Virus record (IMG/VR): IMGVR_UViG_2698536366_000007
Origin: a virus
Lineage: Duplodnaviria > Heunggongvirae > Uroviricota > Caudoviricetes
Length of the DNA stretch: 11,875 nucleotides
Reading direction: 5' to 3' (one strand)
The translations under genes were made by a program, and so were the position numbers. A model generated the notes under the pieces. It was not told where the DNA came from. It saw nothing but the letters and a program-made list of their open reading frames with translations, and made no database searches. Below are positions 1 to 11,875 of this stretch, piece after piece; position 1 is the first letter of the stretch; each line of letters starts with the position of its first letter.

Positions 1-51
1 CTGCTTAAAAAAAGAACAAATGGTAGTGTCCGCTATTGCCAGTACACCTCA
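1..51 (+). mobile_element. IS600 (IS3 family) terminal 51 bp including the inverted repeat; the element body lies upstream of the window
   Basis: Reverse complement of 1-51 matches 8686-8736, the end of the complete IS600 copy, and ends in CCTCA; bases 6-8 TAA correspond to the orfB stop. Confidence 0.8.
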
Positions 52-2852: not shown

Positions 2853-3233
2853 ATGACCGAGCGCATAGAATTTGTTTTACCTTACCCGCCGACGGTGAAC
2901 ACTTACTGGCGTCGTCGTGGCAGCACATATTTTGTATCAAAAGCCGGGGAGCGTTATCGCCGGGCAGTGGCGCTTATTGTTCGCCAGCAGCGGCTGAAAT
3001 TAAGCCTGTCCGGAAGGTTGGCAATAAAAATTATTGCAGAACCACCGGATAAGCGCCGCCGTGACCTGGACAATATTCTGAAAGCGCCGCTGGATGCGCT
3101 GACGCATGCGGGGTTGCTAATGGACGATGAGCAGTTTGATGAAATCAATATCGTTCGTGGTCAGCCAGTATCTGGTGGACGTCTGGGGGTGAAGATTTAT
3201 CCCATAATGCTTGAAGGGCAGGTCAAAAAATGA
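2853..3233 (+). CDS. rusA: RusA-like Holliday junction resolvase
   Basis: 126 aa with the RRRDLDN acidic motif and overall similarity to E. coli RusA; ATG immediately follows the upstream stop. Confidence 0.8.
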   Translation: MTERIEFVLPYPPTVNTYWRRRGSTYFVSKAGERYRRAVALIVRQQRLKLSLSGRLAIKIIAEPPDKRRRDLDNILKAPLDALTHAGLLMDDEQFDEINIVRGQPVSGGRLGVKIYPIMLEGQVKK

Positions 3234-4051
3234 AACTGGAAGATTTACCGAAATACTACTCCCCAAAATCCCCCGGCCTGACTGATGCATCGGCCTCAAC
3301 GTCGAAAGATGCGCTGAGTATCACTGATGTGATGGCCGCGCAGGGCATGACACAGAATCGGGCTGAGATGGGGGTTTCTGCGTTCCTTGGGAAAATGGGC
3401 ATTAGTATGAATGACAGAGAGCGGGCAACAGAATTGCTGACAGAATATGCACTCAGTCGGTGTGATCGCGTGGCGGCGTTAAGAAAACTCCCGGCAGAAA
3501 TAAAACCGGCAGTGATGCGTATTATGGCTTCGTATGCGTTTGAAGATTATGCCCGTAGCGCGGCGAGCAAAAAACAGTGCCCCTGCTGTCACGGAAAAAA
3601 ATTTATTGAAAGCGAGGTTTTTACAAACAAGATCCAGTATCCGGATGGTAAGCCGCCGGTATGGGCAAAGTGTACGAAAGGTGTGTATCCGTCTTACTGG
3701 GAAGAATGGAAAAAAGTCAGGGAGGTGGTAAAAGTTGCCTGTCCGGAGTGTGGCGGAAAGGGTGAGGTTTCCACCGCCTGTAAGGATTGCCGTGGGCGTG
3801 GTGTCGCCATTCATCGTGAAGAGTCGGTAAAACGTGGTATGCCTGTTATCAGAGACTGCCAGCGTTGTGGTGGTCGTGGCTATGAAAGACTACCATCAAC
3901 GGAGGCATTTAATGCTATATGCGAGGTGACAAACCAGATAACACGCGCGTCATGGGAAAAAACAGTTAAGAAATTTTATGATGCGCTGGTGACCCGGTTT
4001 GATATTGAAGAAGCATGGGCTGAGCGGCAGTTAAAAAAGGTAACTAGGTAA
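3230..4051 (+). CDS. Q: late-gene antitermination protein Q (phage 82/Qin type, zinc-binding)
   Basis: 273 aa; several CxxC pairs (CPCCHGKK, CPECGGKG, CKDCRGRG, CQRCGGRG); ATGA overlap with rusA; immediately followed by a PR'-like promoter and terminator. Confidence 0.8.
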   Translation: MKLEDLPKYYSPKSPGLTDASASTSKDALSITDVMAAQGMTQNRAEMGVSAFLGKMGISMNDRERATELLTEYALSRCDRVAALRKLPAEIKPAVMRIMASYAFEDYARSAASKKQCPCCHGKKFIESEVFTNKIQYPDGKPPVWAKCTKGVYPSYWEEWKKVREVVKVACPECGGKGEVSTACKDCRGRGVAIHREESVKRGMPVIRDCQRCGGRGYERLPSTEAFNAICEVTNQITRASWEKTVKKFYDALVTRFDIEEAWAERQLKKVTR

Positions 4052-4056
4052 CAAGG

Positions 4057-4084
4057 TTGATTTTTCCGGAATCTGTGGTAAATT
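4057..4084 (+). promoter_or_regulatory. candidate late promoter PR' (with qut region) downstream of Q
   Basis: -35 TTGATT (4057-4062), 16-bp spacer, extended -10 TGgTAAATT (4076-4084). Confidence 0.5.
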
Positions 4085-4133
4085 CGTCATAACGATGGGC
4101 GTTTTATGCCTGACGTTAGAAGAGTTTCTACAA

Positions 4134-4155
4134 CCCGCCGCCGAGCGGGTTTTTT
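4134..4155 (+). terminator. tR'-like intrinsic terminator
   Basis: CCCGC-cgccga-GCGGG stem-loop followed by TTTTTT, about 50 nt downstream of the PR' -10. Confidence 0.7.
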
Positions 4156-4275
4156 ATGACTGAAATCGCGTCAGTACAGTAAACGCGCTGGTGGCGGTGA
4201 ATACCTGTCTTTCAGCTTGCTGGCTTTTTCGACAAGAGTTATTGGTGTGTCACGTTAACCGGAAAAGGAAAAGAC

Positions 4276-4623: not shown

Positions 4624-5682
4624 ATGCTTAATACTGTAAAAATATCCAGTTGTGAGTTAATCAACGCCGACTGCCTGGAATTTATCCGGTCGTTACCCGA
4701 AAATTCTGTTGACCTGATAGTCACGGACCCGCCGTACTTTAAAGTGAAGCCTGAGGGCTGGGATAACCAGTGGAAGGGCGACGATGATTACCTGAAGTGG
4801 CTGGACCAGTGTCTGGCGCAGTTCTGGCGGGTGCTGAAACCTGCCGGAAGTCTTTACCTGTTCTGTGGTCATCGCCTGGCATCTGATATCGAAATCATGA
4901 TGCGTGAACGCTTCAGTGTGCTGAACCATATTATCTGGGCGAAGCCGTCCGGACGCTGGAACGGATGCAACAAGGAAAGCCTGCGGGCGTATTTCCCCGC
5001 CACAGAGCGCATTCTGTTCGCGGAACATTATCAGGGGCCGTATCGTCCGAAAGATGCCGGGTATGCGGCGAAGGGCAGTGCACTGAAACAGCATGTGATG
5101 GCCCCGCTGATTTCTTACTTTCGTGATGCGCGAGCTGCCCTGGGGATAACGGCAAAACAGATTGCAGATGCCACAGGAAAGAAAAACATGGTGTCGCACT
5201 GGTTCAGTGCCGGTCAGTGGCAGTTGCCGAATGAAAGCGATTATCTGAAATTACAGGCGCTGTTTGCCCGGGTGGCAGAAGAGAAGCATCGGCGTGGTGA
5301 ACTGGAAAAGCTCCACCACCAGCTGGTGGATACGTATACCTCACTGAACCGGCAGTATGCGGAGCTGCTGAGTGAATATAAACATCTGCGGCGGTATTTT
5401 GGCGTGACGGTGCAGGTGCCGTATACCGATGTGTGGACGCATAAACCGGTGCAGTTCTATCCCGGGAAACATCCGTGCGAAAAACCGGCAGAAATGCTGC
5501 AGCAGATAATCAGCGCTAGCAGTCGTCCGGGTGACCTGATTGCAGATTTTTTCATGGGGTTGGGTTCGACAGTGAAAGCGGCACTGGCGCTCGGGCGTCG
5601 TGCAATTGGCGTTGAGCTGGAGACTGAACGTTTTGAGCAGACGGTTCGGGAAGTACAGGATTTAGTCAGCCAGAACGGATGA
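4624..5682 (+). CDS. DNA methyltransferase, beta-class amino-MTase (N6-adenine or N4-cytosine), phage-borne and apparently orphan
   Basis: 352 aa; N-terminal DPPY motif (VDLIVTDPPY) and C-terminal FxGxG AdoMet motif (FFMGLGST); no restriction endonuclease partner seen in the window. Confidence 0.85.
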   Translation: MLNTVKISSCELINADCLEFIRSLPENSVDLIVTDPPYFKVKPEGWDNQWKGDDDYLKWLDQCLAQFWRVLKPAGSLYLFCGHRLASDIEIMMRERFSVLNHIIWAKPSGRWNGCNKESLRAYFPATERILFAEHYQGPYRPKDAGYAAKGSALKQHVMAPLISYFRDARAALGITAKQIADATGKKNMVSHWFSAGQWQLPNESDYLKLQALFARVAEEKHRRGELEKLHHQLVDTYTSLNRQYAELLSEYKHLRRYFGVTVQVPYTDVWTHKPVQFYPGKHPCEKPAEMLQQIISASSRPGDLIADFFMGLGSTVKAALALGRRAIGVELETERFEQTVREVQDLVSQNG

Positions 5683-5722
5683 TATTGAAGAATTAATTAC
5701 GCGTCGTTATTATGCGGCTCCC

Positions 5723-5798
5723 GGCCCTTTAGCTCAGTGGTGAGAGCGAGCGACTCATAATCGCCAGGTCGCTGGTTCAAATCCAGCAAGGGCCACCA
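5723..5798 (+). tRNA. ileZ: tRNA-Ile (anticodon CAU, ileX-like minor isoleucine tRNA), copy A
   Basis: Cloverleaf by eye: acceptor GGCCCTT/AAGGGCC, anticodon loop CTCATAA, T-arm GCTGG-TTCAAAT-CCAGC, encoded CCA; close to E. coli ileX. Confidence 0.85.
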
Positions 5799-5805
5799 TC
5801 ACATA

Positions 5806-5882
5806 CCGCCATTAGCTCATCAGGAAAGAGCGCCAGCCTTCGAAGCTGGCTGCGCGGGGTTCAAGTCCCCGATGGCGGTCCA
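5806..5882 (+). tRNA. argN: tRNA-Arg (anticodon UCG), copy A
   Basis: Acceptor CCGCCAT/ATGGCGG, anticodon stem CCAGC/GCTGG with loop CTTCGAA, T-arm CGGGG-TTCAAGT-CCCCG, encoded CCA. Confidence 0.75.
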
Positions 5883-5895
5883 TTATCTGCATCAT

Positions 5896-5972
5896 GCGTT
5901 GTTAGCTCAGCCGGACAGAGCAATTGCCTTCTAAGCAATCGGTCACTGGTTCGAATCCAGTACAACGCGCCA
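5896..5972 (+). tRNA. argO: tRNA-Arg (anticodon UCU), copy A
   Basis: Acceptor GCGTTGT/ACAACGC, anticodon stem ATTGC/GCAAT with loop CTTCTAA, T-arm ACTGG-TTCGAAT-CCAGT, encoded CCA. Confidence 0.85.
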
Positions 5973-5986
5973 CACTTATTTTCCCT

Positions 5987-6012
5987 GGCTCGCTTTTGCG
6001 GGCCTTTTTTTT
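5987..6012 (+). terminator. candidate intrinsic terminator after tRNA cluster copy A
   Basis: Imperfect GC stem (GGCtCGC / GCGGGCC) followed by a T8 run. Confidence 0.45.
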
Positions 6013-6416
6013 AAATGTCTCACAATTCAGACGGTTGACAGTTGTCTGTTTTGCGGGGAGTTTGTTAAAAGAAACTGGCATGGTGAATCCCCCTGTGCGG
6101 AGGGGCAATCAGCGAGTAGGTATATGGGATAATCGCGGATTCAGGTGCTGGTACTGAATTCACCGGGAGGCACCCGGCATCATGCAATGGCACATAGCGC
6201 CACTCTCCAGCCCTCTCCGGAGGGGCTTTTCTGTGCCGGATACATCACAGTTTCTGGAACCTTAGGTACTACAGTATCAGTCAGGGTGCTATATTTTCAG
6301 ATGTGATGAAAGCCTGTCAGCAGGCAGGGCGTATCGGAAATGACCCAGTAGAGAAAACGTTGACTCAGATACCGGTGCTGAGTTACCGGGAAACCGGCAT
6401 CACATGACCGCTATCC
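6011..6416 (+). repeat. conserved non-coding element X, copy A (core 6011-6227 shared by all three copies; 6228-6416 shared with copy B only)
   Basis: Near-identical to 8281-8685 and, for the core, to 10923-11130; no convincing ORF; contains TTGACA at 6035-6040 and two GC hairpins sharing CGGAGGGG. Confidence 0.7.
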
Positions 6417-6814
6417 TGAGGTGTACTGGCAATAGCGGACACTACCATTTGTTCTTTTTTTAAGCAGCCATCTGATGATATTTTTCCCTGAAGGCTGCCG
6501 GGGAGATATTCCCCAGACGAGAGTGACGACGCTGACGATTGTAGAAAATCTCAATGTATTCCCGTATTACTGAGATGGCTTCATCCCGGTTATTAAAACG
6601 ATAGTGGCTCAGGCTCTCATTTTTCAGCGTTCCCCAGAAGCTTTCCATCGGAGCGTTGTCGTAACAGTTACCTTTACGCGACATTGATGTTTTCAGACCA
6701 GACTGCTCCTGTATGACCCGGTAATCGTATGCGCAGTACTGTGAACCTCGATCAGAGTGGTGGATTAGCCCGGCAGGTGGGCGCTGGCTCCTGAGCGCCA
6801 TAAACAGGGCTTTA
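6417..6814 (-). mobile_element. IS600 fragment (398 bp from the orfB end, including the terminal inverted repeat)
   Basis: Matches 8686-8083 of the complete copy, then switches abruptly into Q coding sequence at 6815. Confidence 0.85.
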
Positions 6815-7232
6815 TCCAGTATCCGGATGGTAAGCCGCCGGTATGGGCAAAGTGTACGAAAGGTGTGTATCCGTCTTACTGGGAAGAATGGAAAAAAGTC
6901 AGGGAGGTGGTAAAAGTTGCCTGTCCGGAGTGTGGCGGAAAGGGTGAGGTTTCCACCGCCTGTAAGGATTGCCGTGGGCGTGGTGTCGCCATTCATCGTG
7001 AAGAGTCGGTAAAACGTGGTATGCCTGTTATCAGAGACTGCCAGCGTTGTGGTGGTCGTGGCTATGAAAGACTACCATCAACGGAGGCATTTAATGCTAT
7101 ATGCGAGGTGACAAACCAGATAACACGCGCGTCATGGGAAAAAACAGTTAAGAAATTCTATGATGCGCTGGTGACTCGGTTTGATATTGAAGAAGCATGG
7201 GCTGAGCGGCAGTTAAAAAAGGTAACTAGGTT
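6815..7232 (+). pseudogene. 3' fragment of a second Q antiterminator gene (about 139 codons), stop codon lost through a small deletion
   Basis: About 99% identical to 3634-4051, with SNPs and a 6-bp deletion that removes the stop; fused to the IS600 fragment. Confidence 0.8.
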
Positions 7233-7258
7233 GATTTTTCCGGAATCTGTGGTAAATT
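7231..7258 (+). promoter_or_regulatory. second copy of the PR'-like promoter
   Basis: Same -35 TTGATT and extended -10 TGgTAAATT as at 4057-4084. Confidence 0.45.
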
Positions 7259-7307
7259 CGTCATAACTATGGGCGTTTTATGCCTGACGTTAGAAGAGTT
7301 TCTACAA

Positions 7308-7329
7308 CCCGCCGCCGAGCGGGTTTTTT
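7308..7329 (+). terminator. second copy of the tR'-like terminator
   Basis: Same CCCGC-cgccga-GCGGG stem plus T-run as at 4134-4155. Confidence 0.65.
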
Positions 7330-7368
7330 ATTGCGGAATTAATTACGGACCGTTATTATTCTGCTCCC

Positions 7369-7444
7369 GGCCCTTTAGCTCAGTGGTGAGAGCGAGCGAC
7401 TCATAATCGCCAGGTCGCTGGTTCAAATCCAGCAAGGGCCACCA
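7369..7444 (+). tRNA. ileZ: tRNA-Ile (CAU), copy B
   Basis: Identical to 5723-5798. Confidence 0.85.
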
Positions 7445-7451
7445 TCACAAA

Positions 7452-7531
7452 CCGCCATTAGCTTATCAGGAAGAGCAGACGACACGATAACAGGGTTGTT
7501 GGTGCGGGGGCGGGTCCCCGATGGCGGTCCA
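7452..7531 (+). pseudogene. degenerate tRNA-Arg-like sequence (probable tRNA pseudogene), copy B
   Basis: Acceptor and D arms match the copy-A tRNA-Arg(UCG), but the anticodon arm is replaced by unrelated sequence and the T-loop lacks TTCRA. Confidence 0.6.
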
Positions 7532-7544
7532 TTATCGGTATTCA

Positions 7545-7621
7545 GCGTTGTTAGCTCAGCCGGACAGAGCAATTGCCTTCTAAGCAATCGGTCACTGGTT
7601 CGAATCCAGTACAGCGCGCCA
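7545..7621 (+). tRNA. argO: tRNA-Arg (UCU), copy B
   Basis: Same as 5896-5972 with one acceptor-stem change (A to G, giving a G-U pair). Confidence 0.8.
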
Positions 7622-7731
7622 TATTCATTCTTCCAGATTCCTTCCGGCAGAGCCTTATACTGAAATATACCTGGCTCAGGATATTGTTGAAAATATTTTA
7701 TGTTTGTCAAAAATAAAAGTTCTGTTAAGTA

Positions 7732-8085
7732 TTGATTGAGTGTTTGTTATACGGTCTAATGGTTTTTTCAGCATTAAATATTTATCATTCATATGGTGTG
7801 GGTAGAGTGAATATTGATGAGGCGTCGGGGTGTTTCATCCTTAGGCAGCGTATTGATATAGTCAATGCAGCACGAGCAAAGGCCTTCAGCCGTTTGACAG
7901 TTTTGTTCTGTACTCCTGATCGTCTTTCGGGAAGAGACGTTATTATTCTGAATAGTGATGCTATACAGAGGGTTTGCGATGAGTTCATGGTTGCTAATTC
8001 AGAATTATTTGCTCTTGTTCAGGAGTACAACAGAATAGCCAGGACCTGTGGTATGGATGAACTTCGGATTACTCATCTGGGGTAG
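7732..8085 (+). CDS. hypothetical cargo protein (up to 117 aa) in AT-rich DNA, copy 1; start codon uncertain
   Basis: Longest ORF in the post-tRNA slot; track start 7732 is TTG, first in-frame ATG at 7759, in-frame GTGs at 7798 and 7807; no strong SD; no family recognised. Confidence 0.45.
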   Translation: MIECLLYGLMVFSALNIYHSYGVGRVNIDEASGCFILRQRIDIVNAARAKAFSRLTVLFCTPDRLSGRDVIILNSDAIQRVCDEFMVANSELFALVQEYNRIARTCGMDELRITHLG

Positions 8086-8280
8086 ATACATATCTGGATT
8101 ATCACCTGTTACGGTAAAAAGTGATTGCTTACTGTTTTTGTGAATGGCATTGCAGCAGCCGGATAATGTCAGTGCTGGCTGACGGTGTGCTGGTGGCGGG
8201 TGTGGTGGTTGTTGCTTTCCCGTTGCTGAAAAAGAAAACGCCAGACTGTTAGCCGGGTATCAGTTAGCGGGAGAAATTTT

Positions 8281-8685
8281 TAAATACTTCACAATTCAGG
8301 CGGTTGACTGTTGTCTGGTTTGCGGGGAGTTTGTTAAAAGAAACTGGCATGGTGAATCCCCCTGTGCGGAGGGGCAATCAGCGAGTAGGTATATGGGATA
8401 ATCGCGGATTCAGGTGCTGGTACTGAATTCACCGGGAGGCACCCGGCATCATGCAATGGCACATAGCGCCACTCTCCAGCCCTCTCCGGAGGGGCTTTTC
8501 TGTGCCGGATACATCACAGTTTCTGGAACCTTAGGTACTACAGTATCAGTCAGGGTGCTATATTTTCAGATGTGATGAAAGCCTGTCAGCAGGCAGGGCG
8601 TATCGGAAATGACCCAGTAGAGAAAACGTTGACTCAGATACCGGTGCTGAGTTACCGGGAAACCGGCATCACATGACCGCTATCC
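8281..8685 (+). repeat. conserved non-coding element X, copy B
   Basis: Matches 6011-6416 (SNPs in the first 40 bp, identical thereafter up to the IS600 junction). Confidence 0.7.
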
Positions 8686-8728
8686 TGAGGTGTACTGGCA
8701 ATAGCGGACACTACCATTTGTTCTTTTT

Positions 8729-9547
8729 TTAAGCAGCCATCTGATGATATTTTTCCCTGAAGGCTGCCGGGGAGATATTCCCCAGACGAGAGTGACGACG
8801 CTGACGATTGTAGAAAATCTCAATGTATTCCCGTATTACTGAGATGGCTTCATCCCGGTTATTAAAACGATAGTGGCTCAGGCTCTCATTTTTCAGCGTT
8901 CCCCAGAAGCTTTCCATCGGAGCGTTGTCGTAACAGTTACCTTTACGCGACATTGATGTTTTCAGACCAGACTGCTCCTGTATGACCCGGTAATCGTATG
9001 CGCAGTACTGTGAACCTCGATCAGAGTGGTGGATTAGCCCGGCAGGTGGGCGCTGGCTCCTGAGCGCCATAAACAGGGCTTTACCTGTCAGCTCTTTTGT
9101 CATGCGCTCTCCCATGGCGTAGCCGACAATTTCGCACGTATAAACATCTTTGATGCCAGCGAGGTACAACCATCCCTCCTGTGTGGCAACATACGTCAGG
9201 TCCGCCACCCAGACCTGATTTGGTGCTGTAGGAGCGAACGTCTGGTTCAGCAGATTTGGCGCAACTGGCAGATTGTGGTTCGAGTTCGTAGTCGCTCTGA
9301 ACTTGCGTTTCTGCTTACAGCGTAGCCTTAGCTCCTTACGAAGACGTGCCAGTCGGTCACGACCAACGATGATGCCATTCTCTGCCAGCTCCGTCTGGAG
9401 CCGCCGGGTTCCATATGTTTCGCGAGTGCGGATATGTGCCACCTTAATCTCCAGTTTTAGCCGCTCATCACTTTGTTTTCTGTCTGAGGGTTCATGCTGT
9501 ACCCAGTTGTAATAACCGCTCCTGGATACACCAAATACCTGACACAT
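8729..9547 (-). CDS. IS600 transposase OrfB (DDE integrase domain), expressed as an OrfAB fusion by -1 frameshifting
   Basis: 272 aa from the first ATG; IS3-family OrfB sequence; the frame is open upstream into the orfA 3' end. Confidence 0.9.
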   Translation of the reverse strand: MCQVFGVSRSGYYNWVQHEPSDRKQSDERLKLEIKVAHIRTRETYGTRRLQTELAENGIIVGRDRLARLRKELRLRCKQKRKFRATTNSNHNLPVAPNLLNQTFAPTAPNQVWVADLTYVATQEGWLYLAGIKDVYTCEIVGYAMGERMTKELTGKALFMALRSQRPPAGLIHHSDRGSQYCAYDYRVIQEQSGLKTSMSRKGNCYDNAPMESFWGTLKNESLSHYRFNNRDEAISVIREYIEIFYNRQRRHSRLGNISPAAFREKYHQMAA

Positions 9548-9582
9548 CGCTTCAATGGGAAATTGTTGTCGCCATTGTTCGA

Positions 9583-9885
9583 TTAACGCGTATTTTTCAG
9601 CGACTCCTGTGCAAAATACGCTGTTGCTTTTTTTAATATATCTCGCTCAAGGCGAGCTTCATTTAACGCCTTACGCAGTTGCAGAATTTCAGATTCCAGT
9701 TCAGCCACCGTGCGGGAACCAGGAGTACCGAGCCCTTTTCTGGCGGCGGTAACCCATTGTCCTAAAGTGCCTTCAGGAAGAGATAATCGGGAAGCGCCTT
9801 CACTGATCGAAAGTTGATTTTCAAGAACCGTTCTGACAGCTTCGGCTTTGAACTCTTTAGAGTAACGTTGGGTTTTTCTGCTCAT
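9583..9885 (-). CDS. IS600 transposase OrfA (helix-turn-helix / leucine zipper)
   Basis: 100 aa; A AAA AAG slippery heptamer on the coding strand (plus-strand T7 run at 9628-9634) near its 3' end. Confidence 0.9.
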   Translation of the reverse strand: MSRKTQRYSKEFKAEAVRTVLENQLSISEGASRLSLPEGTLGQWVTAARKGLGTPGSRTVAELESEILQLRKALNEARLERDILKKATAYFAQESLKNTR

Positions 9886-10001
9886 TATTAGCTCCTTCTG
9901 ATGCCATTCTATTTCAGGAAGGAGTGTCCGTTAAACTCAGGCTACCTCAAGGGTGGTTTTTTATTGCGGAATTAATTACGGACCGTTATTATTCTGCTCC
10001 C

Positions 10002-10077
10002 GGCCCTTTAGCTCAGTGGTGAGAGCGAGCGACTCATAATCGCCAGGTCGCTGGTTCAAATCCAGCAAGGGCCACCA
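10002..10077 (+). tRNA. ileZ: tRNA-Ile (CAU), copy C
   Basis: Identical to 7369-7444. Confidence 0.85.
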
Positions 10078-10084
10078 TCACAAA

Positions 10085-10164
10085 CCGCCATTAGCTTATC
10101 AGGAAGAGCAGACGACACGATAACAGGGTTGTTGGTGCGGGGGCGGGTCCCCGATGGCGGTCCA
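10085..10164 (+). pseudogene. degenerate tRNA-Arg-like sequence, copy C
   Basis: Identical to 7452-7531. Confidence 0.6.
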
Positions 10165-10177
10165 TTATCGGTATTCA

Positions 10178-10254
10178 GCGTTGTTAGCTCAGCCGGACAG
10201 AGCAATTGCCTTCTAAGCAATCGGTCACTGGTTCGAATCCAGTACAGCGCGCCA
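10178..10254 (+). tRNA. argO: tRNA-Arg (UCU), copy C
   Basis: Identical to 7545-7621. Confidence 0.8.
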
Positions 10255-10364: not shown

Positions 10365-10718
10365 TTGATTGAGTGTTTGTTATACGGTCTAATGGTTTTT
10401 TCAGCATTAAATATTTATCATTCATATGGTGTGGGTAGAGTGAATATTGATGAGGCGTCGGGGTGTTTCATCCTTAGGCAGCGTATTGATATAGTCAATG
10501 CAGCACGAGCAAAGGCCTTCAGCCGTTTGACAGTTTTGTTCTGTACTCCTGATCGTCTTTCGGGAAGAGACGTTATTATTCTGAATAGTGATGCTATACA
10601 GAGGGTTTGCGATGAGTTCATGGTTGCTAATTCAGAATTATTTGCTCTTGTTCAGGAGTACAACAGAATAGCCAGGACCTGTGGTATGGATGAACTTCGG
10701 ATTACTCATCTGGGGTAG
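10365..10718 (+). CDS. hypothetical cargo protein (up to 117 aa), copy 2
   Basis: Identical to 7732-8085. Confidence 0.45.
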   Translation: MIECLLYGLMVFSALNIYHSYGVGRVNIDEASGCFILRQRIDIVNAARAKAFSRLTVLFCTPDRLSGRDVIILNSDAIQRVCDEFMVANSELFALVQEYNRIARTCGMDELRITHLG

Positions 10719-10922: not shown

Positions 10923-11130
10923 CACAATTCAGGCGGTTGACTGTTGTCTGGTTTGCGGGGAGTTTGTTAAAAGAAACTGGCATGGTGAATCCCCCTGTGC
11001 GGAGGGGCAATCAGCGAGTAGGTATATGGGATAATCGCGGATTCAGGTGCTGGTACTGAATTCACCGGGAGGCACCCGGCACCATGCAATGGCACATAGC
11101 GCCACTCTCCAGCCCCTCTCCGGAGGGGCT
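10923..11130 (+). repeat. conserved non-coding element X, copy C (core only)
   Basis: Matches the 6011-6227 core with two differences, then diverges into unique AT-rich sequence. Confidence 0.7.
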
Positions 11131-11162
11131 GTTTATATTGATTTTGTCAGATGTGAGTAAAC

Positions 11163-11196
11163 TCCTTATGGACTTTGTTGTTTTAGTCCATAAGGA
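11163..11196. terminator. perfect 12-bp stem hairpin (TCCTTATGGACT ...10 nt... AGTCCATAAGGA), probable terminator for the minus-strand ORF
   Basis: Exact inverted repeat overlapping the stop of the 11166-11501 minus-strand ORF; U-tract is weak on both strands. Confidence 0.5.
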
Positions 11197-11501
11197 CATA
11201 TTTGCAGAGTGCAACGGTTATTAAAGCATTCATTCAATACGTTATCTGTATTTGTAGGGCATTCCTGGCTATTTTTGATTGAATTCCAGAATGTTTTATT
11301 GAATGGTACTACGTTGTAAATGGTTACAGGTAGCACTTTGTTATTGAGCATGATGCCTGTGTGAGTCAGTGTAAATATACTTTCAGGAGGTAAGAAAGCA
11401 TCCGATTGATACCAGATTATTAATTTTATTTTACTCCATATGACTGAAAAAGATATTCCGCATGATGGCTGGATAACTGTATCAATCACAATCCACTTCA
11501 T
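11166..11501 (-). CDS. hypothetical protein (111 aa) in an AT-rich island, oriented against late transcription; moron-like
   Basis: ATG with SD AAGGA at 6-nt spacing on the minus strand; hairpin at its 3' end; AT-rich codon usage distinct from the phage backbone; no family recognised. Confidence 0.5.
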
Positions 11502-11761
11502 TTAGTTTCCTTGTTTATGCCTTGCTGGTGATGTTCTGAAAAGTATAAATGATATTTTTGAATGTAAACCATAGAGCAGAATTATTTTTCTGATGTTGTT
11601 TATTGTTTATTTAAATGCAGGGTGGTTTATATCTCGTCTTGTAGTTTATCCATGCATATCTGCTTGATAATCAGGTTTTTATTTAAGGTATGGTTTTGTG
11701 TTTTTTCTGTATTACATGTCAGGTATTTTAAAGAATTATTTTTCAGATGGTGGAAAGAACC

Positions 11762-11875
11762 ATGGCATTTAAACACTATGATGTTGTCAGGGCGGCGCCG
11801 CCGTCAGATCTTGCGGAAAAGCTGACACATAAACTGAAAGAGGGCTGGCAGCCGTTTGGTAGTCCGGTGGCCATA
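11762..11875 (+). CDS. 5' end of a conserved lambdoid late-region protein (possibly DUF1737-like), continuing beyond the window
   Basis: ATG 11762 (MAFKHYDVVRAAPPSDLAEKLTHKLKEGWQPFGSPVAI...) with a purine-rich stretch upstream; GC content returns to backbone level; family assignment is from memory. Confidence 0.55.
   Translation, partial: MAFKHYDVVRAAPPSDLAEKLTHKLKEGWQPFGSPVAI

Follow-up and report, generated by a model that had tools for sequence, protein, structure and literature searches.

Why would one short stretch of phage DNA carry the same trio of tRNA genes three times, and why would the middle gene be recognizable as a tRNA in only one of the three copies? This question is raised by IMG/VR virus record IMGVR_UViG_2698536366_000007 (Caudoviricetes), 11,875 nucleotides which were analysed over their whole length and are called the window below. 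An earlier inspection of the letters (the sequence-only reading) had proposed that the trio is present three times and that its middle gene, tRNA-Arg(UCG), is intact only in the first copy, A. It was found that the window carries the ileZ-argN-argO tRNA module of lambdoid (Shiga-toxin-type) prophages in three copies, and that in two of them, B and C, the middle gene is in all probability dead. The explanation we favour, with a probability of about 0.87, is that a lambdoid module has reached three copies in a prophage remnant that IS600 and homologous recombination have rearranged, and that the argN elements of B and C are a widespread pseudogene allele.

tRNA calls and anatomy of the three modules

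ARAGORN found seven tRNA genes in the window, all on the + strand, three in copy A and two each in copies B and C. The same seven were obtained with Rfam RF00005 at its gathering threshold of 29 bits (scores of 58–72.5 bits), and none was found between ileZ and argO of B or C, in agreement with what had been proposed. Copy A has three tandem tRNA genes, Ile2(CAU)-Arg(UCG)-Arg(UCU), within ∼250 bp, as expected of the module, and B and C, with the outer two genes only, have its degenerate form. The coordinates given earlier for the two degenerate elements proved exact. The modules are made up as follows.

5685..5713, + strand: promoter-like site of module A, TTGAAG-17-TATTAT, from a consensus scan; it apparently matches the putative promoter pT of phage 933W
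5723..5798, + strand: ileZ of copy A, tRNA-Ile2 type, anticodon CAU (ARAGORN, Rfam; codon AUA for ileZ of 933W)
5806..5882, + strand: argN of copy A, intact tRNA-Arg(UCG) (ARAGORN, tcg; Rfam, 58 bits; cloverleaf as minimum free energy (MFE) fold)
5896..5972, + strand: argO of copy A, tRNA-Arg(UCU) (ARAGORN, Rfam, 933W record)
5987..6012, + strand: terminator-like hairpin and T run after module A, common to 933W and absent after B and C
7369..7444, + strand: ileZ of copy B (ARAGORN, Rfam)
7452..7531, + strand: argN pseudogene of copy B (alignment, fold, no detector call, left without annotation in public genomes)
7545..7621, + strand: argO of copy B (ARAGORN; Rfam, 68 bits)
10002..10077, + strand: ileZ of copy C (ARAGORN, Rfam)
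10085..10164, + strand: argN pseudogene of copy C, identical to that of copy B (self-comparison, alignment)
10178..10254, + strand: argO of copy C (ARAGORN, Rfam)

When the three clusters were aligned, B and C were identical to each other, and the differences between A and B/C were almost confined to ∼45 nt at the centre of the middle gene. A single A-to-G change in argO of copy B gives a U4-G69 wobble pair. The length and identity of the window repeats were far above chance expectation. The CAU gene was labelled 'Met' by ARAGORN, but the identical sequence is a tRNA-Ile according to both the NCBI Prokaryotic Genome Annotation Pipeline (PGAP) and the authors of the 933W record, and the aligned ileZ copy, invariant over its length, is also named tRNA-Ile by PGAP. 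The window gene is of the lysidine-dependent tRNA-Ile2 type.

The assignment of copy A was supported by comparison with a characterized Shiga toxin (Stx) phage; the comparisons with 933W and phiP27 were made with their GenBank feature tables. In the 933W record (AF125520, 21120–21371), ileZ is listed for AUA, argN for 'CGH; CGG?' and argO for 'AGA; AGG?', with the putative tRNA promoter pT directly before the trio and a terminator directly after it. Genes, gene order and spacing (7–9 and 13 nt) are shared by copy A, which matches 933W nearly base for base and departs from it in argN at a few points of the D-loop and the T arm; a promoter-like site upstream and a terminator downstream are present in both. 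Copies B and C also align nearly identically with 933W outside the centre of the middle gene. Unlike in Stx2 phages, no stx genes follow the window module, and an STnc100 element and IS600 stand there instead. Module A would supply tRNA-Ile2 for AUA, tRNA-Arg(UCG) for CGA and CGG, and tRNA-Arg(UCU) for AGA and AGG, and its transcription is predicted to start at its own promoter and/or to depend on Q-mediated readthrough. Upstream of B (7331–7359) and C (9964–9992) a promoter-like sequence, TTGCGG-17-TATTAT, was observed, which is, like the site of module A, a match at the level of the consensus only.

The intact argN of copy A folded into a perfect cloverleaf whose acceptor, D and anticodon stems count 7, 4 and 5 bp, with the anticodon loop CUUCGAA (anticodon UCG), the T-loop UUCAAGU and an encoded CCA. 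Sequences 100% identical to it are annotated as tRNA-Arg by PGAP, so the canonical Ile(CAU)-Arg(UCG)-Arg(UCU) order read from the letters stands. The middle element of B and C, 80 nt long, retains the acceptor stem, D arm, 5-bp T stem and CCA of argN, and its residual arms and both spacers align with argN at the orthologous position, as expected of a pseudogene derived from it. Its anticodon arm is replaced by AGACGACACGATAACAGGGTTG, and its T-loop is GCGGGU, of 6 nt. The sequence between the D arm and the T stem, AGACGACACGATAACAGGGTTGTTGGTG, could form no more than a weak hairpin, of 7 bp with a loop of 3 nt, or a 5-bp stem with a 12-nt loop. The sequence-only reading had rightly seen that the acceptor and D arms are kept and the anticodon arm and T-loop lost; the retained T stem refines this picture and divides the damage into two separate lesions, an anticodon arm swapped for non-homologous sequence and, on our interpretation, a T-loop mutated to a short G-rich loop.

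The detectors agreed with this anatomy. ARAGORN called no gene in the B element at thresholds down to 60%, while it assigned the UCG anticodon to copy A, and a 106-nt search of the B element gave no Rfam tRNA match even at E ≤ 10. The fold energy of the B/C element was unremarkable (z = –1.29, compared with –2.85 for argN of copy A). Among the matches listed, copies 100% identical to the B/C type were left unannotated by RefSeq/PGAP in 15 of 15 E. coli genomes; PGAP annotates tRNAs with tRNAscan-SE. By these results neither of the outcomes named in the sequence-only reading as refuting it, a functional tRNA scored in B/C or another anticodon in copy A, was obtained.

These results bear on the proposal that the element is a working tRNA of unusual form, its anticodon loop enlarged or its variable arm long, which the detectors miss. 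Related alleles with an intact T arm do bear the PGAP label 'tRNA-OTHER', and ARAGORN at 80% gave them a Leu(taa)-like or undetermined fold. The window allele, which drew nothing from either program and no annotation from PGAP, has no 7-nt anticodon loop with U33, and its 6-nt T-loop lacks the T54-T55-C56...A58 signature of the canonical 7-nt loop; the length of its G run is, moreover, polymorphic. An enlarged-loop or long-variable-arm tRNA was discarded for this allele on the Rfam and ARAGORN negatives, and we regard a functional tRNA of this kind as extremely unlikely. Judged by its lost arms, the B/C element could not serve as a decoding tRNA, and we infer that it has lost its function.

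Frequency and origin of the degenerate argN allele

Whether the degenerate allele belongs to this locus or to a population was answered by a census of 5426 complete E. coli genomes, which gave the following counts.

ileZ: 3057 genomes, 7527 places
argO: 2369 genomes, 6223 places
intact-type argN: 1212 genomes, 2125 places
B/C-type pseudogene: 1850 genomes, 2281 places

The degenerate allele was slightly commoner than intact argN and occurred in about one-third of complete E. coli genomes. It is common and old, not peculiar to this locus. The best match was at least 99% identical to the window copy in 90% of records for ileZ, 56% for argO and 9% for argN in the E. coli genomes. The presence of the argN type in only 1212 of the 5426 genomes marks it as an accessory gene, consistent with the earlier statement that E. 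coli has no chromosomal tRNA-Arg with a UCG anticodon. The Arg tRNAs known from E. coli K-12 have the anticodons ACG, CCG, UCU and CCU only.

In the phage collection the balance was the reverse, intact argN being found in 208 records, nearly all of Stx2 phages, and the degenerate type in 8. The B/C allele was 100% identical in phage mEp460 and in several induced vB_EcoS phages. An ST131-type prophage (NZ_CP093011) was nearly identical to B/C and differed in the G run alone; PGAP lists there a tRNA-Ile, a gap of ∼100 nt and a tRNA-Arg. Prophages of the mEp460 and ST131 types have one module beside an intact Q, whereas in the window one of the two degenerate copies lies by a truncated Q and the other by IS600. 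Phage phiP27 (AJ298298) and Stx2e prophages share the replaced anticodon arm, AGACGACACGATAACAGGGTTGTTGGTGC, with B/C. The phiP27 record lists only ileZ and argO, with a gap of ∼100 nt between them and a methylase gene upstream, and phiP27 matched the middle element at 92.3% identity, the same as one of the Stx2e prophages (L124); phiP27 would thus carry an intermediate form of the middle gene.

The way in which the allele arose was suggested by prophages that carry the lesions singly. Two prophages, L123 and L124 (the latter an Stx2e prophage), have the anticodon arm replaced but the T arm still canonical (TTCGAGT), and their middle genes are called 'tRNA-OTHER' by PGAP; in the window B/C allele the T-loop is damaged as well. 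Locus L058 is the converse, with an intact UCG anticodon arm and the T-loop GGCGGGT. Since the lesions occur singly in other prophages, replacement of the anticodon arm and damage to the T-loop are separable. The G run of the T-loop varied from 5 to 14 among B-type alleles (for example IMG/VR loci L083, L117, L118 and L033, and also L001 and L125). This is a homopolymer length polymorphism, the typical slippage of unconstrained DNA. The window B/C allele thus bears both lesions, an old block replacement in the anticodon arm and a mutation of the T-loop, brought together stepwise or by recombination. For the donor of the replacing 22 nt, the anticodon arm of ileZ was considered by eye, and the resemblance was too weak to claim. 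A match of the Rfam family 'Plastid-ycf2 5UTR' to the reverse strand of ileZ in L123 and L124 (∼36 bits, below the gathering threshold of 65.7) was regarded as a meaningless tRNA-derived match.

Like tRNA pseudogenes in general, the B/C element is homologous to a functional tRNA gene, has lost essential elements and draws no detector call. It differs from them in that its central lesion is a block replacement instead of scattered point mutations, and in being an old allele that recombination has spread widely, not a private product of decay. It is no new kind of element: the B/C form is already present in thousands of database sequences, unannotated or as 'tRNA-OTHER', and is implicit in the annotation of phiP27. 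A search of the literature for ileZ, argN and argO found nothing beyond passing mention of variation in the cluster. For O157 strains, single-nucleotide polymorphisms of the first tRNA-Arg and of the spacer preceding it were described in 2010 (PMC2858043).

Conservation and decay of argN

The conservation of the trio was examined in viral contigs from IMG/VR (120 loci among the matches listed), a sample for which the selection pattern demands intact ends of ileZ and argO. Nucleotide diversity (π) over 115 viral-contig clusters was 0.0017 for ileZ, 0.039 for argO and 0.096 for the argN segment, a comparison of trio members that this selection biases. The order of conservation is ileZ > argO > argN, and argN is the weakest member of the trio. 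Fully canonical middle genes made up 43 of the 120 sampled and the B/C type 32; in about 43 more the UCG anticodon was kept, with at least two stem mismatches and/or a T-loop without A58 (TTCGGGT, CCCGGGT). Judged by these defects, many annotated prophage 'tRNA-Arg' genes may be non-functional.

Two further observations were made on the sampled middle genes. Of those which ARAGORN still calls tRNA-Arg(tcg), about one-third have two or three mismatched stem pairs (6:68 A.A, 53:63 A.C, or C.A pairs at the acceptor end) and T-loops without A58 (loci L015, L007, L097 and L003, for example). At locus L020 the middle gene folds as a canonical cloverleaf except that its anticodon reads TCT, not TCG (loop CTTCTAA); the cluster would encode two tRNA-Arg(UCU), apparently after an anticodon switch by point mutation.

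Codon usage of the window open reading frames (ORFs) gave a possible reason for the order of conservation. Over 1711 codons, the frequencies per 1000 were 16.9 for ATA, 7.6 for AGA, 5.3 for AGG, 3.5 for CGA and 12.9 for CGG. The E. coli genome averages are about 4–5 for ATA, 2 for AGA, 1–2 for AGG, 3–4 for CGA and 5–6 for CGG. AUA and AGA/AGG were several-fold enriched against these averages, and CGA was not. The host reads CGA with ICG tRNAs and CGG with argX, and the UCG tRNA would be dispensable for that reason. Because tRNA-Arg(UCG) would be redundant with these host tRNAs, argN may decay repeatedly, and its loss is probably cheap because CGA is infrequent in the window genes; ileZ and argO would answer codons that prophage genes use often and the host rarely. 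The decay is therefore probably due to relaxed selection, the tRNA being redundant, and the pseudogene would persist as a spacer between two retained tRNA genes. The earlier suggestion that the three copies differ in decoding capacity is correct, although the difference is of small consequence.

Several observations weigh against the preferred explanation. The diversity of the pseudogene was low, π being 0.025 compared with 0.21–0.25 for DNA outside the cluster, and a perfect 7-bp acceptor stem and the CCA persist in it. The flanking DNA is a poor neutral yardstick, since its diversity is mainly mosaic replacement. The enrichment of codons was judged against general background figures for the host, and the ranking of the trio comes from a sample selected on ileZ and argO. 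No donor of the ∼22 nt replacing the anticodon arm was found, a search of the window for them matching the two copies alone, and the three-module arrangement was absent from the other complete genomes searched.

The low diversity is the main reason to consider that the B/C element is a retained, non-decoding, tRNA-like RNA, acting as a scaffold for RNase P and 3'-trimming of the ileZ-argO precursor or diverting, as a decoy, a tRNA-binding enzyme or anticodon nuclease. In its MFE structure four helices, the 7-bp acceptor stem, the D arm, a hairpin and a T-like stem, still met in a four-way junction, with CCA at the end. Its length was nearly constant across the 1850 genomes, its diversity was about one-tenth of that in the flanks of the cluster, and the replaced arm was identical among prophages that differ at other argN positions. 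The pattern of change spoke otherwise. Among ten distinct alleles, none of the 23 predicted pairs showed compensatory changes, and each of the three substitutions in the novel hairpin disrupts its pair. A G run varying from 5 to 14 in the T-loop and a fold z of –1.29 do not suggest a maintained structure, and the B element matched no Rfam family. Low diversity is, moreover, expected for 80 nt lying between conserved tRNA genes which move as one recombination module. It was read as hitch-hiking between two conserved, co-travelling genes and not as function, although the test is a weak one. A retained tRNA-like RNA is thus considered very unlikely; if it were true, a conserved RNA that governs, for example, how much ileZ and argO is produced, or that decoys a tRNA-targeting enzyme, would have spread to one-third of E. 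coli genomes. The preferred explanation remains that of a pseudogene allele carried along between two conserved genes.

IS600, STnc100 and the arrangement of the window

How three modules came to lie in one window was examined from the sequences around them. Module A follows a Q gene and a methylase gene, module B follows a truncated Q, and C is separated from any Q by IS600. The features concerned are the following.

1..51, + strand: end of a third, inverted IS600 copy, the reverse complement of 6417–6467 (self-BLAST; the best genome matches begin at 52)
3230..4051, + strand: Q antiterminator gene, 273 aa, upstream of module A (Pfam Antiterm, 1.6e-53; homologue annotated as antitermination protein)
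4624..5682, + strand: DNA methyltransferase gene directly upstream of module A (Pfam N6_N4_Mtase, 7.9e-42)
6049..6238, + strand: copy 1 of the small RNA (sRNA) family element STnc100 (Rfam RF02076, 123.6 bits)
6417..6814, – strand: truncated IS600, cut within orfB and fused to a Q fragment (self-BLAST, 6008–6814 = 8277–9083; rve domains)
6814..7331, + strand: 3' fragment of a second Q gene with its downstream terminator, 98% identical to 3632–4157
8318..8507, + strand: STnc100 copy 2, which holds the crossover (Rfam; comparison of units)
8686..9949, – strand: complete IS600, 1264 bp, with orfB at 8729–9547 and orfA at 9583–9885, in the terminator just upstream of module C
10951..11140, + strand: STnc100 copy 3 (Rfam, 132.4 bits)

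The order of methyltransferase gene and module seen at A is also found in phiP27 and in some Stx2 phages. The complete element agrees with IS600 of the IS3 family in its length (∼1264 bp), its terminal inverted repeats and its orfA/orfB DDE (rve) transposase. Its ends are TGAGGTGTACTGG... and ...GGCTACCTCA, it has rve and HTH_21 domains, and it is 99.4–99.6% identical to elements that PGAP names IS600 ('IS3-like element IS600 family transposase'). No direct repeats were found flanking it, as expected after recombination between IS600 copies. The insertion lies within the terminator hairpin upstream of C and leaves the promoter-like TTGCGG-17-TATTAT intact.

One STnc100 element, with 122–132 bits, stands downstream of each tRNA module. 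Unit B was identical to unit C up to 8318 and identical to unit A from 8449. Unit B is a C/A chimera, with a crossover in the 130-nt STnc100 core that is common to all three units. Because B and C are 100% identical over ∼1.1 kb, their duplication is recent. No lysis or stx genes were found in the window, which represents a prophage remnant scrambled by IS600 and not an intact phage. Its source may be an IS600-rich Escherichia or Shigella strain.

That the threefold repetition might be an artefact of assembly, with the tRNA alleles real but not adjacent, had to be weighed at these junctions. Neither the junction of IS600 with the Q fragment nor that with module C turned up in any of the complete E. 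coli genomes or, by exact match, in the GTDB species representatives, and the ORF that fuses IS600 orfB to Q gave no match on look-up. B and C are 100% identical over ∼1.1 kb, and draft assemblies collapse this region into 2.4-kb contigs. The junctions themselves, however, are biologically sensible, with exact IS600 ends and a single clean crossover in the STnc100 core. The truncated-Q ORF (133 aa, 6865–7266) created by one of them was identical on 17 contigs of ∼2.4 kb from independent NCBI draft assemblies (GCA_013437215.1, for example), in which the B/C repeat seems to be collapsed. An artefact is therefore judged unlikely, and the arrangement A-IS600-B-IS600-C is considered probably real.

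Other genes of the window were noted as well. A hok/sok-type type I toxin-antitoxin locus lies at 891–1216, with an Rfam sok match of 112 bits at 891–1066 and an overlapping 70-aa mok/hok-like ORF at 1004–1216, where hokD is annotated in a homologous prophage. Between argO and STnc100 there is a 117-aa ORF in B (7732–8085) and C (10365–10718) without a Pfam match; the identical product was found in 487 blocks of the assembly collection, as a rule with Q or the tRNAs on one side and an iraM/PmrD-like gene on the other, and in related contigs it is followed by a 43-aa DUF3927 ORF. Downstream of unit C lie an iraM-like gene (PmrD family, anti-adapter; 11166–11501, – strand) and the start of a DUF1737 gene (11622–11825, + strand), as in ST131-type prophages.

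For biology at large these results are of little import, since the trio is a textbook accessory of Stx and lambdoid phages and its degenerate allele is common. Mildly new are the census, with argN as the recurrently decaying member, and the triplication mediated by STnc100 and IS600, by which the window illustrates how a module can be multiplied through an insertion sequence and a short sRNA-family repeat. The results are of value for annotation, because many prophages listed with 'two tRNAs' carry an unannotated argN remnant. At the level of the population, tRNA-Arg(UCG) would have been lost recurrently and independently in lambdoid prophages while ileZ and argO stayed almost invariant, and the ranking ileZ > argO > argN would be a modest but clear case of selection that follows codon demand.

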